Assembly: GCA_965223265.1 (NCBI GenBank)
Contig: OZ244999.1
Span: 8,768,001-8,832,000 of the forward strand
DNA from: Planctomycetota bacterium
GTDB taxonomy: Bacteria; Planctomycetota; UBA8108; SXIK01
Direction of reading: 5' to 3'
Length of the DNA: 64,000 nt
In this document: positions 14,493 to 54,731 of the stretch, piece by piece
Position numbering within the stretch: the stretch's first letter is position 1
Layout: each line of letters opens with the position of its first letter
Position numbers and translations under genes: made by a program
Notes under the pieces: model-generated
What the model was told of the DNA's origin: nothing
Seen by the model: only the letters and a program-made list of their open reading frames with translations
The model's database searches: none

Positions 14493-15130
14493 TGGAGACA
14501 GATGCAGAGACAGAGCCCAACGTTGCAAAAGAGACGCGCCTTAAGACCGTGCGCGATTGCGATTGAGTGAGAGTTTGCGTGTACGTTTGCGTGTGAGTGT
14601 GCGTGGGCGAGGGGGAACACCGCACACCGTCAACCTCACCAAACGTGAGGTCCGCCACGACGTCCCTCAACTGCCGATCGAACCTCAGGGAAAGGGTTTC
14701 TCCGCCCTACCTGCGAAAACTTATGCAACTGTCGGGACAGAGCCGGAGACAGAGCCGGAGACAGACGCAGAGCCGGTGACGGAGGCGTGAAGCCGAGACA
14801 GACTGAGAGAACGCCCACGCGAACGCAACGGGAACGGCCGACGCGCACGCTGACGACCGAGCGTCACACGGAGAGACCGTGAGTTTTTGGCACGCGGTCG
14901 TGACTCACGGCACGGTCACGGTCCACGCTCCACGGTCACGTCCAGAACGGCACACGGTTTTGCCTGCTCGTTTGGACGGTCTTCCTGCGTTGACTTGGTT
15001 TCCTTTCGTTCAACTCTTGTTCTGATCTTTTGAATCTTGAACAGAAGCAAACGAAGATCAGGCAGAGAAGCGGCAGGCGCTCGAGGATCCACGCCCACGC
15101 ACTCGCCTCTCCGCCTCACGCAATCGCAAA
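14493..15130. repeat. Composite degenerate hexamer/heptamer arrays in an ~890-bp intergenic spacer
   Basis: GAGACA/GATGCA at about 14493-14517, GTGTGA/GTTTGC at about 14555-14608, GAGCCG/GAGACA at about 14735-14785, CACGGT/GTCCACG at 14906-14943, CCCACG at about 15088-15100. Confidence 0.8.
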
Positions 15131-20352: not shown

Positions 20353-20450
20353 GGAGACAGAAACGGAGACAGAGGCAGCGACGGAGTCAGATAACGGAGT
20401 ACTGGTACTCCCACTCCCACGCTCACTCACACCCACACCCACACCCACTC
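20353..20450. repeat. Two-block hexamer array (GAGACA-like then CCCACA-like)
   Basis: GGAGACAGAAACGGAGACAGAGGCAGCGACGGAGTC followed by CCCACTCCCACGCTCACTCACACCCACACCCACACCCACT. Confidence 0.85.
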
Positions 20451-27909: not shown

Positions 27910-28300
27910 GAGCGTGTGCGATTGCGATTGCGATTGCGTGTTGTGCGTCTCCTAACCTAACAGCCTGTTGAAAAAGTGCTTCGAGCTGAAAACTGGTCGC
28001 TTCGCGTCCAGATCGGCCGCGGCGAACGCAGGTAATCTCCGAGATTTTCGAGGCTCGCCGCGGCTGATCTGGGCGTGAAGAGGCCGGTTTCTCAGCCGAA
28101 TGACTTTTTCAACGGGCTGCTAAAGTAGCAGGCACGGGCCGCGTGCGTCCGGTCTGCAGCAAGGAGGTGCGTGTGCGTGCGGGTCTGCGTGTGCGTGGGA
28201 GTATCAGTACGCTGCGTCTGCCACTGCGTCCGGATCTGTGAGGGGGGGAGGAGAGCAATCTCCTTCCCCTACCTCGATTCTCTGTCTCCGTCTCGTCTCT
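27910..28300. repeat. Degenerate two-block hexamer array (GTGCGT/GATTGC then TCTGTC) interrupted by a MITE
   Basis: GTGTGCGATTGCGATTGCGATTGCGTG left of the MITE, GTGCGTGTGCGT...GTGTGCGTGGGAGT right of it, then TCTGTCTCCGTCTC near 28281-28294. Confidence 0.7.
27961..28119. mobile_element. 159-bp palindromic MITE with IS5/IS1182-like ends and CTAA target duplication
   Basis: Terminal repeats CAGCCTGTTGAAAAAGT / ACTTTTTCAACGGGCTG; CTAA directly flanks both ends (27957-27960, 28120-28123); the interior folds as one long hairpin. Confidence 0.85.
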
Positions 28301-50371: not shown

Positions 50372-51525
50372 TTCTGAAAACCGTTTTGCGGGCGCGGCGC
50401 CGAACAGCGCAGCACGGTGTAACCACGTTTCCCACGCCATGTGCGCTCAGCGAAGTGTCGTTCACAGATGGCCTGGGCTTTCTCTGTCGCCTTGGTGACA
50501 CACCAGTAGGCGCCACCGGGTGCCAAGACGTGTGCTGACTCGCGGCAGAAGTGTTCGAAGATACGAAAATCTCCGAAGTACGGCGGATTGGCGAGGACGA
50601 CGTCGACGCTCCTCGGCTTCAGCGAACCGAGATCGTAGGCGAGGAGCGGTAAGACGTTGTCGCACGCACAGCTTTTGGCGTTGACTGCGGCCTGCTCAAC
50701 GGCGCGGACGTTCGAGTCTACGAGGATCGCGTGACCCGCGCTGGCGACACGGGCTGCGGCGATGCCGAGAGCTCCTGGACCGCAGCCAAGCTCTACGACC
50801 CGCGAGTCGGTTTCGATCGCCGCGAAGTCCGCAAGCGTGCGAGCGCCGTCGTCCAACCGGCCGTGGGCGAAGACGCCGGGCCGGGTGACGTAATCGATCG
50901 CATGACCGAAAAGCTGCGCAGCGATCCGACGGGTGAAGTCGCGGCGTCGCAGCTGACGGTCGCGCTGTCGACGCGCCACGTAGACGACGCCGCCCCGAGA
51001 TCGGTCGTGGATCGTCGCGTCGCCAAAAATGTCGACGACGCGCTCGCGCAGCCAACGGTCTGACCGGTTGTCTGTAGCGGTCAGTAGCTTGCCTCGTGGC
51101 CGGAGGGCCTCAAAACACTGCCGCAGTAGCTCTCCGGTCAATCGTGCGTCAGCAGTGTGCGGCGCCGCAAAGACAACCCAGTCGAATGCTCCTCGCGGCA
51201 AATCCGACGCGAGATGCGGCGTGACTGCAGCGATATGATTGATCCGGAGGCTCTCGCAGCCGCGGTGGAACTCGTACGCGTCCATGTCGAACGAGTGGAC
51301 GTTCGCACTTGGAAAAAGGAGTCGGACGGCCATGGCGCCGACGCTTTCCGGACTGAGAACGACGAGAATATCTCCTGCCATGGGTTGATCCAGCGCCGCC
51401 AGCAAAACCCGCTGGGCGCGTTGAAGCCCGCGCGCTGAATGGATCTCGATGCGGCCACCGAGGAGAGTCTCACGCCGCCGTGCTTTCGATGGGTTGCCCA
51501 GTGTGACGACGTGTTTCTCAGTCAC
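50368..51525 (-). CDS. RsmC-like class I SAM methyltransferase
   Basis: TRPGVFAHGRLDDG, VELGCGPG, LANPPY; start uncertain. Confidence 0.85.
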   Translation of the reverse strand: MTEKHVVTLGNPSKARRRETLLGGRIEIHSARGLQRAQRVLLAALDQPMAGDILVVLSPESVGAMAVRLLFPSANVHSFDMDAYEFHRGCESLRINHIAAVTPHLASDLPRGAFDWVVFAAPHTADARLTGELLRQCFEALRPRGKLLTATDNRSDRWLRERVVDIFGDATIHDRSRGGVVYVARRQRDRQLRRRDFTRRIAAQLFGHAIDYVTRPGVFAHGRLDDGARTLADFAAIETDSRVVELGCGPGALGIAAARVASAGHAILVDSNVRAVEQAAVNAKSCACDNVLPLLAYDLGSLKPRSVDVVLANPPYFGDFRIFEHFCRESAHVLAPGGAYWCVTKATEKAQAICERHFAERTWRGKRGYTVLRCSAPRPQNGFQN

Positions 51526-51761
51526 GATTCTTCTATGTTGAGGCTGGGGGCCGATGGACGCTGGTTGGGATCCTGCCGCGATGGCGCTCGCACGCCTTGG
51601 TTGTACATGAACCGCTGACGGCAGGATGGTGGCAAGACCCGACAAGCCGTGAACGCCTTAGTGTTGTTCACGACAGTTGGTACATCAACGCACTCGTGAC
51701 CGGAAAGTGAGGCCATGCCTACGAACTCAAGGCGCGGCGGGTCTGAGGGGAGGCAGAGGCG

Positions 51762-52042
51762 GAGACAGAGACAGAGACAGAGACAGAGACAGAGACAGAG
51801 ACAGAGACAGAGACAGAGACAGAGACAGAGACAGAGACAGAGACAGAGACAGAGACAGAGACAGAGACAGAGACAGAGACAGAGACAGAGACAGAGACAG
51901 AGACAGAGACAGAGACAGAGACAGAGACAGAGACAGAGACAGAGACAGAGACAGAGACAGAGACAGAGACAGAGACAGAGACAGAGACAGAGACAGAGAC
52001 AGAGACAGAGACAGAGACGGGCCGCCCACGCCCACGCCCACG
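51762..52042. repeat. Perfect (GAGACA)42+GAGAC microsatellite followed by (CCCACG)3
   Basis: Counted from 51762 to 52018; CCCACG block at 52025-52042. Confidence 0.97.
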
Positions 52043-52105
52043 CACAGCGGTGCGGCGGCGATCGCGCCGACGGCAGAGAAGAACTCTGCTGCTCTGGGCG
52101 ATCAT

Positions 52106-52229
52106 GCGGCGGCGGTTTTGTCGATCTTAACCGAAGCCGAGCCGGCCTCAAGGGTGCCCTCGCTGCGCTCGGCGCTTCGCGCCCTTGACCCCGTCTCTGC
52201 TTCGGTTGGCGGCAGTGAAACGCCGCCGC
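52106..52229 (+). promoter_or_regulatory. Conserved structured leader of four-helix-bundle gene 1
   Basis: Nested stems GCGGCGGCG/CGCCGCCGC, AACCGAAGC/GCTTCGGTT, TCAAGGG/CCCTTGA; 41-nt core 52148-52188 shared with the leader of gene 2. Confidence 0.75.
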
Positions 52230-52274
52230 GTCGGGCGTCGGCGACAGGTCACTGGGCCGTTACCGGAGGCACAC

Positions 52275-52598
52275 ATGGGCTTTCTTGCTCTGGATCACAC
52301 TTTTGGCATCGTTCGTCAACTGCGTCCCCTGGTCTCGAGCATCCGTCGTCACGACTCGAAGCTGGCCAATCAGCTGCGCGATGCCGGTTCGTCTGTGGCG
52401 CTCACCCTCGGCGAGGGCAATCGGCGTCAGGGGCGTGACCGCGGGCATCTTTGGCGCGTTGCTTCGGGCAGCGCCGAAGAGGTGCGCACGGCGCTTCGCG
52501 TTGCTGAAGCTTGGGGCTACATCGACCAAGCCGAGGCTGCTGCGGTGCTCACGGACATCGATGAGCTGCAGGCGATGCTTTGGAAGTTGACGCGCTGA
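52275..52598 (+). CDS. Four-helix-bundle protein (23S rRNA-IVP / bAvd-like)
   Basis: 107 aa from ATG 52275 (GGAGG upstream); QLRDAGSSVALTLGEG and RVASGSAEE match the family pattern QxRRAxxSxxxNIAEG...ARGSxxE. Confidence 0.9.
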   Translation: MGFLALDHTFGIVRQLRPLVSSIRRHDSKLANQLRDAGSSVALTLGEGNRRQGRDRGHLWRVASGSAEEVRTALRVAEAWGYIDQAEAAAVLTDIDELQAMLWKLTR

Positions 52599-52660
52599 CG
52601 CGGGAGCTTTGGCCCGCCGTGCGCTATTTGGCGCGGCGGGTTTGACGGGGAGGCAGGGGC

Positions 52661-52791
52661 GGATACGGATACAGAGCCAGAGGCAGAAGCAGAGTCAGAA
52701 CCAGAGTCAGATACGGATACAGAGCCAGAGTCAGAATCAGAGTCAGATACGGATACGGAGTCGGAAGCAGACTACCACGCCCACGCTCACG
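52661..52791. repeat. Degenerate two-block hexamer array (GGATAC/AGAGTC/AGAGCC then CCCACG/CTCACG)
   Basis: About 18 RGANNC units followed by ACCACGCCCACGCTCACG, between the convergent genes. Confidence 0.9.
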
Positions 52792-52861
52792 CGCGTCGCT
52801 TCATTGGAAACGGCAAGAGCTTGCGCCCGCCGCGGATACGGCGGGCGCGGGTGGCTCATGC

Positions 52862-53185
52862 TCAGCGGGTGAGCCCGCGAAGAAGTGCTAGCAGGCGATC
52901 GAGCGTCTTGAGCGGAGTGGTGACGTCTTCGTTCTTGAGAACGCCCCAGGCCAGGGCCAGTTGTAGCGCCGTTTCGACCTCGCGCGCACTGCCGCGCGCG
53001 ACGCGAAAGAGGTGCTGGCGATCTTTCCCGGAGCGCTCAGCGCCTTCCGAGAGGTTGAGCGCGACCGAGGAAGCAGCGCGCCGGATCTGCCGGTGCAGGT
53101 CGGGATCGAGCCGCCGAAGCCGCACCAAAGGAGCCCGCAGGTCGCCGATCAAACCGAGACTGACGTCGAGAGCGATGAAGCGCAT
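52862..53185 (-). CDS. Four-helix-bundle protein (23S rRNA-IVP / bAvd-like)
   Basis: 107 aa from ATG 53185 (GGAGG upstream); QIRRAASSVALNLSEG, FRVARGSAREV. Confidence 0.92.
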   Translation of the reverse strand: MRFIALDVSLGLIGDLRAPLVRLRRLDPDLHRQIRRAASSVALNLSEGAERSGKDRQHLFRVARGSAREVETALQLALAWGVLKNEDVTTPLKTLDRLLALLRGLTR

Positions 53186-53231
53186 GTGAAGCCTCCGAAG
53201 AAAAGGTGAGTCAAGAGCCGCCGCGTCCGAT

Positions 53232-53347
53232 CGGCGGTACCTCACCCCCAATGCGGAGCGGAGGGACTGTCAAGAGCGCGAAGCGCCGAGCGCAGCGAGG
53301 GCACTCTTGACAGTCCTGAGCACGGCGTACCATCGACACAACCGCCG
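53232..53347 (-). promoter_or_regulatory. Conserved structured leader of four-helix-bundle gene 2
   Basis: 13-bp perfect stem GGACTGTCAAGAG/CTCTTGACAGTCC (53264-53316), outer CGGCGGT/ACCGCCG; core 53270-53310. Confidence 0.75.
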
Positions 53348-53373
53348 TACGGTAAACCGTGTCACAGCTCACA

Positions 53374-53436
53374 CACGGTCACGGTCCACGGTCCACGCCC
53401 ACGCCCACGCAAACGCCCACGCAAACGGGAATCGGG
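53374..53436. repeat. CACGGT / GTCCACG / CCCACG / CAAACG short-repeat array
   Basis: Read directly, upstream of the leader of gene 2. Confidence 0.85.
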
Positions 53437-53645
53437 AGGCCAGCACGGACCGCCAGCCCCGTCCACACACCGAATCTGCGGGCTTGTTTTGCTTCATGTC
53501 ACGGCGCGAGTCCACCAGGCAGCCTACTCTCTGCCTGCCCTGTTCAGCGCGAGGCACTTCTTCAAGCCTCTGCCTCGAAGTCCATGCCTTCCGTTGCTCT
53601 CGTGGATGCCATGCGATACGATCTCGCTCCATGGGAGATCGCAGT

Positions 53646-54731
53646 ATGACCTCAGCGGCGCAGACATCGGCGACGATGCGTGCCGTGGTTTGTGTGGCGA
53701 ACGGCAAGACGGTTTTCGAGCGTCGAGCCGTTCCAATCCCGGCGCGTGGCGAGATTGTTCTACGCCTTCGCGCCTGCGGTCTTTGCGGCACCGATCTTTT
53801 CAAGCTCGCACATCGGAGCGTGCCGAGCGGTACTGTGCTCGGACACGAGGTCGTCGGTGTCGTCGACAACGTTGGCGAAGGTGTCGACCAATTCGAGCCG
53901 GGCGACCGCGTCGTCGTCCCGCATCACGTCGCTTGCGGGAAGTGTCGGTTGTGCCGGCTCGGTAGCGAGACGATGTGCGCGACGTTTCGTGAGAATTTGA
54001 TGGAACCGGGCGGCTTTAGCGAGCGCGTCCTCATCCGCGAGCGCGCCGTGCGCTTGGCGGCGCGTCGACTGCCTGCGAGTGTCAGCGACGCGGCGGCGGT
54101 GTTTATGGAGCCGGCCGCTTGTGTCCTTCGCGGTCTACGCCAAGCGTCGATCGGCCCGGTCGCTGGCGACGACGACCGGCCGCCGGTCGCGGTCATCGTC
54201 GGAGCTGGAAGCATGGGGCTCCTCCATTTGCTCGTCCTTCGTGCATGGCGGCCTGAGGTCAGAATCGTCGTTGTCGATCCGATCGCAGAGCGATGTGATC
54301 TGGCGCTCGAGCTCGGCGCTCAGGTGGCGGTCACTCCAGGGGAAGACGTCGCCCGTCGCGCGGTCGACGAGCAGAGCGGTGGGCTCGGAGCCGATGCAGC
54401 TTTTGATACTGCGGGAGGCCCAGGCACACTAAATACTAGCCTGTCGCTTCTTCGACCTGGTGGTTCGGCCGTCCTTTTCGCGCATGCGCCAGAGGGTGGT
54501 CCGGCGAACTTCGATCTCAACGAGCTCTTCAAGAACGAACAACGCGTGCTTGGGACCTATTCGGGGGGATTGACCGACCAGGCTGAAGTCTACGAAATGA
54601 TCGCGAGCGGTCGCCTCGACGCATCATGTTTGGTCACGCACTCTCTACCCCTCGAGCGCTTCGACGCGGCCGTCGATCTCGTCAGGCGACACGAGGCTCT
54701 GAAAGTGCTTCTGGTGGCTCAAGAAGGATAG
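53646..54731 (+). CDS. Zinc-dependent alcohol/polyol dehydrogenase (MDR)
   Basis: CGTD, GHE, CGKCRLC..C, GAGSMG; start moved to ATG 53646 (GGGAG upstream). Confidence 0.9.
   Translation: MTSAAQTSATMRAVVCVANGKTVFERRAVPIPARGEIVLRLRACGLCGTDLFKLAHRSVPSGTVLGHEVVGVVDNVGEGVDQFEPGDRVVVPHHVACGKCRLCRLGSETMCATFRENLMEPGGFSERVLIRERAVRLAARRLPASVSDAAAVFMEPAACVLRGLRQASIGPVAGDDDRPPVAVIVGAGSMGLLHLLVLRAWRPEVRIVVVDPIAERCDLALELGAQVAVTPGEDVARRAVDEQSGGLGADAAFDTAGGPGTLNTSLSLLRPGGSAVLFAHAPEGGPANFDLNELFKNEQRVLGTYSGGLTDQAEVYEMIASGRLDASCLVTHSLPLERFDAAVDLVRRHEALKVLLVAQEG

Follow-up and report, generated by a model that had tools for sequence, protein, structure and literature searches.

Convergent twin genes for four-helix-bundle proteins, set among hexamer arrays in a Planctomycetota genome, as a candidate proliferating cassette related to 23S rRNA intervening sequences

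What are two small genes that face each other tail to tail, wrapped in hexanucleotide repeats, between a methyltransferase gene and an alcohol dehydrogenase (ADH) gene of a planctomycete chromosome? The stretch analyzed (hereafter the window) comprises 64,000 nucleotides of the Planctomycetota assembly GCA_965223265.1 (contig OZ244999.1, positions 8,768,001 to 8,832,000, forward strand), and the locus in question (window 51722-53427) contains two convergent genes of 107 amino acids (aa), each with a leader and a 3' hairpin, with hexamer arrays between and around them. The answer that we favor, with modest confidence, is that a lineage-specific proliferating cassette occupies about 29 sites, seven of them convergent twins, and that the locus is one of these seven. 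The cassette would be related to the intervening sequences (IVS) of 23S rRNA genes that bear an open reading frame (ORF), but intergenic in location. The arrangement is more than chance, since 36 occurrences of this module are present in the genome.

The order of the elements, read from the letters and the ORF listing, is array, leader, gene (+), hairpin, array, hairpin, gene (-), leader, array. This is the layout that a first-pass annotation, made from the sequence alone, had described, and it was borne out by sequence reading, by the ORF list, and by Tandem Repeats Finder (TRF). The parts are the following (window coordinates, strand; SD, Shine-Dalgarno sequence):

51722..51749, + strand: relic of an A-type 3' hairpin (its 3' half), together with the constant lead-in of the purine-type array (GGCGCGGCGGGTCTGAGGGGAGGCAGAGGCGGA)
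51750..52018, + strand: hexamer array (GAGACA) x44.8, purine-type (TRF, 98% matches, score 517)
52023..52043, + strand: short C-type hexamer array (CGCCCA) x3.5 (TRF)
52060..52274, + strand: gene A leader, with an interrupted long hairpin (52129-52207) around a near-invariant core; a GC hairpin and the SD (GGAG) come after it
52275..52598, + strand: gene A (gene 1), encoding a 107-aa S23p / Avd-like four-helix-bundle protein (TIGR02436, PF05635)
52611..52642, + strand: gene A 3' hairpin, with a 12-bp GC stem and a weak TTT tail, kept after A copies
52650..52775, + strand: degenerate purine-type hexamer array between the twins, of GAG/GAT-NCR units (TRF at 52672-52760, CAGAGT-type, and sequence reading)
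52776..52797, + strand: short C-type hexamers (TACCACGCCCACGCTCACGCGCG) (sequence reading)
52823..52848, - strand: gene B 3' hairpin, with an 11-bp GC stem (fold -34.2 kcal/mol, z -5.98)
52862..53185, - strand: gene B (gene 2), encoding a 107-aa paralogue 49% identical to A (TIGR02436, PF05635, BLASTP)
53186..53350, - strand: gene B leader, with the core hairpin at 53264-53316 as in A, a GC hairpin, and a CUCCG that may base-pair with the SD
53374..53427, + strand: hexamer/heptamer arrays (CACGGTC; CCACGC/AAACGC) (TRF), G-rich in the reading direction of gene B

The two proteins align without gaps, and BLASTP returned the same 52 identities in 107 positions that had been counted in the first reading. 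Both products score above the curated cut-offs of the family models, with 54.2 and 57.2 bits for TIGR02436 (cut-off 24) and 53.6 and 56.9 bits for PF05635 (cut-off 33.8), and the family profile matched the solved protein XCC0516 (2GSC) with an E value of 4.8e-12. The AlphaFold2 (AF2) model of the gene A product (pLDDT 95.6) has four helices, comprising residues 2-24, 28-48, 53-79, and 85-106, and Foldseek aligned it with 2RLD (BT_0352; TM 0.90), with 2GSC (XCC0516; TM 0.86), and with the Avd protein of the Bordetella diversity-generating retroelement (DGR) (4DWL, TM 0.82; 8UB7, TM 0.86), the latter at 13% sequence identity. The model thus predicts an up-down four-helix bundle like those of 2GSC and 2RLD, and the earlier statement that this family has no assigned function and shares the fold of Avd holds. 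Solved relatives of the family are pentameric. XCC0516 is a homopentameric toroid, according to PMC4990558.

The genome that holds the window (G000; a single contig of 9.18 Mb, 60.8% GC) gave 38 matches to TIGR02436. By tblastn and translation we identified 36 intact ORFs, all of exactly 107 aa (17 A-type and 19 B-type), plus six fragments; the 16 further A copies share 86-94% aa identity with gene 1 and the 18 further B copies 84-90% with gene 2. They occupy about 29 sites, seven of which are convergent A-> <-B pairs, the remainder being solitary. A profile of the leader matched 46 times, by position 35 times before intact genes and 11 times as relics, which supports the proposal that leader, gene, and 3' hairpin constitute a modular repeated unit. 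The unit also occurs in damaged forms: the cassette at G000:8664742-8664963 has kept leader and 3' hairpin and lost the gene, and the intact A gene at G000:5176239 lacks the leader hairpin owing to a 125-nt deletion between short repeats.

Selection on the copies is purifying, with dN/dS values of 0.144 within A (134 pairs) and 0.13 within B (170 pairs) at a mean dS of ~0.5, which points to an old family in which each copy has been kept functional. Residues 81-95, i.e., the loop between helices 3 and 4 and the start of helix 4, are relaxed and not clearly positively selected. Duplication continues, as judged from six pair loci that are 92-98% identical across ~1.8 kb; their homology stops at the outer arrays. 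The sequence shared by the seven pair loci has the arrays at its outer limits; they directly abut unique DNA, in some cases ~0-15 nt from the apparent stop codon of the neighboring gene. As a separate observation, the ~220-bp spacer between the twins is inverted in two of five pair loci (G000 7189-7190k, 7450-7451k, 8303-8304k, 8370-8371k, and 9141-9142k), the inverted spacers being 88-97% identical to the other three in the opposite orientation, a pattern that suggests recombination between the two facing 3' hairpins.

Remains of the unit can be recognized at the window locus itself. The relic at 51722-51749 closely resembles the stretch that follows the hairpin of gene 1 (52630-52668), and since an A-type hairpin half and the same lead-in stand just before array 1, this array looks like the tail of a vanished third unit. 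A 16-mer of the A 3' hairpin has 47 matches in the genome outside cassettes, and three of them look cassette-derived: this relic, the gene-less cassette (G000:8664940), and a degenerate copy at G000:906864. We discarded the idea that the 16-mer is a general terminator module, since the other 44 of the 47 look like chance matches in GC-rich coding sequence. The fold of the gene A 3' hairpin gave a z of -1.74 against shuffles, 12 of 200 being equally good; neither GC-rich 3' hairpin is followed by a U-tract, and a consensus scan of the locus returned 0 canonical terminators and 0 sigma-70 promoters. From the TGA of gene 1 onward (window 52599-52800) the reading frame stays open through the array, as (E/D)(T/A/S/P) and then (H)(A) dipeptide repeats. 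Translation of the arrays as tails by read-through of the gene 1 stop was also considered and rejected: the frame fits in the window copy, but indels in the 3' hairpin among the A copies make a conserved frame unlikely.

The most conserved part of the unit is not the gene. Both genes share a folded leader of ~170 nt, matched by the nhmmer leader profile at window 52110-52277 for gene A and 53183-53347 for gene B, and conservation among copies runs from ~215 nt before the ATG through the 3' hairpin. In the 41-nt leader core (TCAAGGGTGCC...CCCTTGA) the two leaders differ at only two positions, which compensate each other, and between A and B the identity is 90% in the core, 54% in the coding sequence (CDS), and 31% in the freely covarying lower stem. 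The predicted folds reach -82.7 kcal/mol for A (z -3.95) and -69.7 kcal/mol for B (z -3.49), and in either case 0 of 200 shuffles were as good. An alignment of 40 leaders, 35 from G000 and five from G007, a genome of another family, supports the long hairpin: both sides have changed in 16 of its 34 pairs, doubly changed cells number 111 against 42.9 +/- 4.5 in column shuffles (0 of 500 shuffles reach the observed value), and pairing holds in 83.9% of the cells, compared with 37-48% for slid partners. G.U cells are more numerous than A.C cells (69 against 20, with one invariant pair giving 38 of the 69), and the structure is therefore better on the sense strand of the gene. The covariance models of Rfam 15 gave no match with E <= 1 over the leaders.

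In the A and B units this long covarying stem precedes the ORF and does not enclose it. The main hairpin does not include the start codon, and the SD could be paired only by a short anti-SD stretch, as it is by the CUCCG of the 3' arm in the minimum-energy fold of the gene B leader. The leader hairpin and the anti-SD pairing would then compete, and the leader RNA would gate translation by hiding the SD or the start codon, in the manner of the fold-back inhibition of IS10. The leader would likely be a target of RNase III, which cuts the terminal stem of the 23S IVS, or of the encoded protein. This conserved leader is also a candidate new structured RNA.

Are the arrays part of this unit, or do they merely share its address? 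We counted as strict the TRF arrays with a period of exactly 6 and at least four copies, and as period-6-family arrays a looser class, of which G000 has 719. Of the 36 genes, 35 have at least one of the latter within 500 bp upstream or 300 bp downstream, the rate in equally sized random windows being 7.6%. It had been proposed as a check to look for leader and arrays around other family members, and these do carry both, with 35 of the 36 intact genes preceded by the leader. With strict arrays the figures are 27 of 36 against 2.6%, and most of the nine misses carry, by inspection, TRF arrays of period 12. Of the 17 A copies, 14 have a purine-type array upstream; of the 19 B copies, 12 have a G-rich one there, G-rich arrays being complementary to the C-type. 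A G-rich array was found upstream of an A copy, or a C-rich array upstream of a B copy, in 0 cases. The arrays on the two sides of each G000 gene share one direct polarity. The hexamer arrays are the outer part of the repeated unit, with a polarity fixed relative to the gene.

According to a different explanation, the arrays would be ordinary microsatellites of the lineage and the genes paralogues made by segmental duplication, both sharing long intergenic regions at gene 3' ends by coincidence. It draws on the 216 of 256 strict arrays that lie >700 bp from any cassette, so that arrays are not simply cassette ends, and on a general preference of arrays for convergent intergenic regions, which make up 48 of the 119 array-bearing regions without a cassette against 973 of all 5219. 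In addition, 3 kb more of flank, 98% identical, is common to one pair of loci; this stretch consists of a serine-recombinase element (see below), the rest of the B leader, and its arrays, and the homology ends ~3.34 kb from the B gene. However, a control matched for length keeps the difference (strict arrays in 17 of 22 cassette-flanked intergenic regions of at least 400 bp against 80 of 886 others that long, i.e., 77% against 9%, on crude gene calls), the polarity of the arrays is tied to the gene type, and the homology of the six pair loci ends at the outer arrays. Nor does loss of mismatch repair account for the array-rich genomes, since MutL, the one component searched, is present in all six genomes tested. 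Together with the recurrence of the association in metagenomes and in a single-copy genome, presented below, these data lead us to disfavor coincidence as improbable. We likewise set aside a role of the arrays as Rho-utilisation sites, since, in the examples read, those that directly follow a stop codon are frequently rich in purines and in G on the sense strand.

Some further observations concern arrays that stand apart from the gene. The window has arrays without a bundle gene in intergenic DNA at 1356-1548, 14500-14940, 20407-20450, and 28167-28197, and they are of the same two flavors, i.e., GTGTGA/GTCTCT (complement of the purine-type) and ACGC-type. A REP-like hairpin family (..AAGTAGCA GGCACAC-N3-4-GTGTGCC GTCCGG..) is present in 272 copies in G000 (e.g., 2061727-2062591, 4167667, and 524932), 104 of them within 200 bp of a strict hexamer array; its sequence was found 0 times in samples of G001, G002, G007, G009, and G014 and five times in the G005 sample. 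Upstream of the B leader of the 7450k pair (G000 ~7449.6-7450.3k), a 115-bp unit with (CCCACACGGACT) repeats and one REP-like hairpin is repeated in tandem at least four times.

Does the association hold beyond this genome? Array densities in seven related genomes are as follows:

G000: 36 cassettes; 27.9 strict arrays per Mb (23.7 away from cassettes)
G007: 13-18 cassettes; 220 strict arrays per Mb, in 400 kb without any cassette match
G014: 3-5 cassettes; 20 strict arrays per Mb
G005: one cassette; 0 strict arrays in the 327 kb sampled; the sole cassette abuts a (CGGACT)n array
G001: no cassette found; 2.5 strict arrays per Mb
G002: no cassette found; 0 strict arrays per Mb
G009: no cassette found; 3.7 strict arrays per Mb

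The density tracks the cassettes in a way that cuts across the family tree, which is suggestive and is not a statistical test. In a set of 80 metagenome loci encoding relatives at 39-64% identity, 57 have a period-6-family array within 450 bp; of the 16 loci whose flanks reach 350 bp or more on each side, 14 do. Arrays number 1.44/kb close to the gene and 0.24/kb at a distance from it. Among the array units listed for these loci and read by eye, only those of L140 are reverse-complementary on the two sides. The 150 nt upstream of the gene fold with a median z of -5.47, and a z of -3 or lower is reached by 68% of loci and by 10% of control windows. In the closest loci the leader is of the same family as in the window, and in distant relatives a near-perfect hairpin of 60-80 bp takes in the SD together with the ATG and the first codons. 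The syndrome of the window locus is also seen in two loci titled as a Haliangiales metagenome-assembled genome (MAG). These data support an array link that is real, oriented, and general.

Adjacent family genes in the metagenome loci form 24 pairs, of which 17 are convergent, seven divergent, and 0 tandem. In a tree of the twins some are mutual sisters and others split into two clades, each holding one member per pair, so that twinning appears to be both recurrent and long-lived. Arrays, hairpin leader, and strictly inverted twins thus recur with the gene subfamily in metagenomes and in another phylum, and an arrangement that is strictly inverted and never tandem argues for a cause at the DNA or RNA level. 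Searches of plasmids and of viral contigs returned no relatives of the bundle gene, and a scan of genome contigs with a single protein likewise gave nothing.

The distribution of the family among related genomes is sporadic: TIGR02436 matches were found in six of 40 relatives and in 0 of the three genomes of the same family (G001, G002, and G003). G007 gave 13 matches with the family model and 18 with protein A, many of which sit at the ends of contigs, and it combines the same leader as G000 with hexamer arrays of its own, (CCCGTN)n and (CAGAGA)n. It had been suggested that the interval between the methyltransferase and ADH genes be compared in relatives for empty sites. This interval spans 163, 132, and 135 bp in G001, G002, and G003, respectively, against 2.1 kb at the window locus, an empty site in a loose sense, since these genomes belong to other genera and their flanking proteins are only 48-62% identical. 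The unit is absent from the site in these relatives, and the locus is not a fixed syntenic pair. In G001 (G001:C4:7207360-7209655) the methyltransferase gene stands in tandem with the ADH gene and not divergent from it, and a local inversion separates the genera.

With these data a host function can be weighed. It would make A and B abundant ring-shaped nucleic-acid-binding proteins that work on the hexamer arrays throughout the genome, one 6-nt unit of RNA or single-stranded DNA being read per subunit, with the leader as an autoregulatory operator and the copies serving dosage or specificity. TRAP and Hfq provide precedents for binding to periodic short repeats. Purifying selection on all 36 copies fits such a role, and so do arrays that co-occur with the gene even far from its copies (in G000 and G007, against 0-3.7 per Mb in the three gene-less genomes), the presence of two main array families and two protein types in G000, a leader core more conserved than the CDS, the match in sequence and fold to 2GSC, 2RLD, and Avd, and the homopentameric toroid described for XCC0516. 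However, array units vary widely within and between genomes, which is hard to square with specific recognition, and G007 has mostly one protein type yet several array families. Copies kept for heteromers or dosage are usually tandem or operonic, whereas none of the 24 adjacent pairs is tandem, and the patchy distribution and the relics better fit a selfish element. We regard a host function of this kind as unlikely.

Which enzyme could then copy the unit? No transposase, integrase, or reverse transcriptase (RT) gene lies within ~5 kb of the locus, and the first reading had seen none next to the twins. The fold shared with Avd, a component of the DGR ribonucleoprotein in 8UB7, brings up another reading, in which the genes are Avd-type accessories of an RT acting in trans (DGR-like or other) that would retro-copy the leader-gene-hairpin transcript and generate the arrays by slippage. 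Non-LTR (long terminal repeat) elements make microsatellite tails, and the extent of the unit resembles that of a transcript. There are four matches to RVT_1 in G000 (1895554, 3424405, 3516453, and 5913461), with E values of 1.9e-36 to 2.0e-36 and 127.7 bits each; such identical scores would denote one multicopy element, perhaps a group II intron. G007, which has 13-18 cassettes, the densest arrays, and an 89% complete assembly, gave no RVT_1 match, nor did G017, and we consider the RT an improbable trans partner, since it is not co-distributed with the cassette. The arrays also stand on both sides of the unit, and retro-copying is, in our opinion, very improbable.

A recombinase does occur beside some cassettes, as a separate insertion, the only ORF of the cassette being that of the 107-aa bundle protein. 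An element of 2.72 kb, with copies 97-99.8% identical, is inserted at one fixed point of the B leader at six G000 sites: 8835385-8838122 (3.4 kb past the end of the window), 2581199-2584372, 6779080-6782253, 7186418-7189595, 8597398-8600856, and 8979136-8982474. The insertion point lies in the 5' arm of the B leader hairpin, beside TCAAGGG. The element encodes a 696-aa large serine recombinase, of which residues 1-272 match the Resolvase and Recombinase domains. Since it sits beside B genes of two subfamilies, it appears to target the leader and not to carry the cassette, and from its position the B leader looks like its attachment site.

The neighbors within ~5 kb of the locus are housekeeping genes, encoding a GFO/IDH/MocA oxidoreductase, an OsmC protein, a rhodanese, a MauE/DoxX protein, the methyltransferase, two Zn-ADHs, and an M29 peptidase. 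This setting bears on a further explanation, i.e., that the twins serve in defence against phages or in a CRISPR-associated role. There are PF05635 genes in cas loci (18 genes; PMC3936711), and the family scores high in an association analysis of DGR components with 'defence islands' (PMC10053308). Neither protein matched any PADLOC model, the searched viral contigs held no relatives, and 36 dispersed copies would be atypical for a defence gene; we consider a defence role highly improbable. A scan of 51400-53800 with Rfam 15 detected no rRNA or other family, with one chance-level match (E 0.12).

We return to the selfish, IVS-like cassette. It fits the data better than a plain gene family does, on account of its patchy distribution, of the insertion seen in comparison with kin, of relics, and of copies that break assemblies, and also of the design of the leader, the oriented link with the arrays, and the strict inversion of neighboring copies. 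Assembly contigs from four runs that hold the locus are short and break at repeats, one contig of 538 bp (52466-53003) being the same in all four, and the listed read joints at the locus look like cross-mapping between cassette copies.

Several points weigh against it. No catalytic partner for the cassette was found. A gene family that benefits the host would also account for 36 intact copies kept by purifying selection, and the mean dS means that most copies are old. Most strict arrays are remote from any cassette, and the correlation of arrays and cassettes across genomes comes from seven related genomes that were partly sampled. No terminal inverted repeats or target-site duplications were found at the junctions of arrays and unique DNA in the seven pair loci, where the arrays could mask short duplications. 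Movement has not been observed: a closely related strain is lacking, and the locus contigs of the four runs only break at repeats. No recombinant junction was demonstrated. Finally, the synteny evidence concerns one site, compared with genera whose flanking proteins are so divergent; a second site, of an A copy (L016), has a left flank that belongs to a multi-copy family and a right flank whose genes are not adjacent in relatives, and it showed no synteny and was uninformative.

If the locus is such a cassette, it would behave as a selfish element, with the selection on its ORF acting at the level of the element or through an unknown host benefit, and new copies would arise without a transposase of its own. 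Copies would spread by ectopic recombination or gene conversion between dispersed hexamer arrays, and template switching at the hairpins would make new ones, which would explain why neighboring copies are always inverted. A bolder version, which we put forward as possible and rather doubtful, would unite bundle protein, hairpin leader, and short-period arrays in an undescribed self-propagating element: the ring protein would recognize nucleic acid with a 6-nt period and promote template switching or recombination there, the arrays would be both seeded by the element and landing pads for it, inverted self-copies would form at the hairpins, and the classical rRNA IVS would be cassettes that landed in rRNA helices. 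Were this bolder version true, 36 active copies would offer a tractable model for the 30-year-old question of what the IVS ORF does.

The S23p / 23S-IVS family is widespread, has the Avd fold, and has been without an assigned function since 1993. The genome studied here is a natural experiment for it, with 36 intact and selected copies outside rRNA, recent duplicates that are 92-98% identical, relics, and a gene-less copy; it also offers a leader RNA more conserved than the protein and a quantitative link with hexamers in cis, across genomes, and across phyla. If this link is causal, it would explain the origin of the dense intergenic hexamer arrays of some bacterial genomes and bring to light a way for genes to spread without a transposase.

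How does the cassette compare with known systems? The main texts of the literature searched on the family names and on hexanucleotide repeats in Planctomycetes describe no repeat-flanked intergenic cassette. Repetitive extragenic palindromes and bacterial interspersed mosaic elements (REP/BIME), miniature inverted-repeat transposable elements (MITEs), and the short tandemly repeated repetitive (STRR) heptamer arrays of cyanobacteria are non-autonomous intergenic repeat elements, and like the cassette they are multi-copy, intergenic, biased to gene 3' ends, and rich in hairpins, break short-read assemblies, and have no transposase of their own. Unlike them, the cassette has a selected protein gene with its own leader, and microsatellite flanks without a defined end sequence. 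In IS10 and IS50, fold-back of the transcript inhibits translation of the transposase. The distant relatives resemble these elements in that sequence complementary to the start region (SD, ATG, and first codons) stands upstream and would make an outside read-through transcript fold the 60-80-bp hairpin over the start, whereas the A and B units of the window differ in leaving the start codon free of the main hairpin. With the Avd of DGRs, a likeness of the bundle family that is noted in PMC10053308, the cassette protein shares the four-helix-bundle fold, and it is likewise small and basic; it differs in the low sequence identity, in having no adjacent RT, and in that RT is not co-distributed.

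The ORF-bearing 23S rRNA IVS of Leptospira, Coxiella burnetii, Xanthomonas, and Brucella encode the same protein family (PF05635/TIGR02436). The IVS of Coxiella, as described in PMC4990558, has a 28-bp terminal stem, an S23p ORF, and GACAGAT heptamers just before the ORF in a number that varies among strains; its ORF is argued to be decaying, and the idea of the IVS as a mobile element whose ORF serves mobility is presented as a hypothesis that is still open. The cassette differs in several respects. It lies in ordinary intergenic DNA, in 36 copies, and is not inserted in an rRNA helix (25 or 45); its stem precedes the ORF or buries its start, whereas that of the 23S IVS encloses the whole ORF; its arrays are tens of units long and are also found without the gene; its copies occur as inverted twins; and its ORF is clearly under purifying selection, as opposed to the decay argued for Coxiella (PMC4990558). 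On the other hand, both have a very stable long stem beside the ORF and a sporadic distribution that suggests horizontal spread, and in both, short tandem repeats stand right beside the ORF, heptamers of GACAGAT in the Coxiella IVS (PMC4990558) and GAGACA-type hexamers in the cassette.

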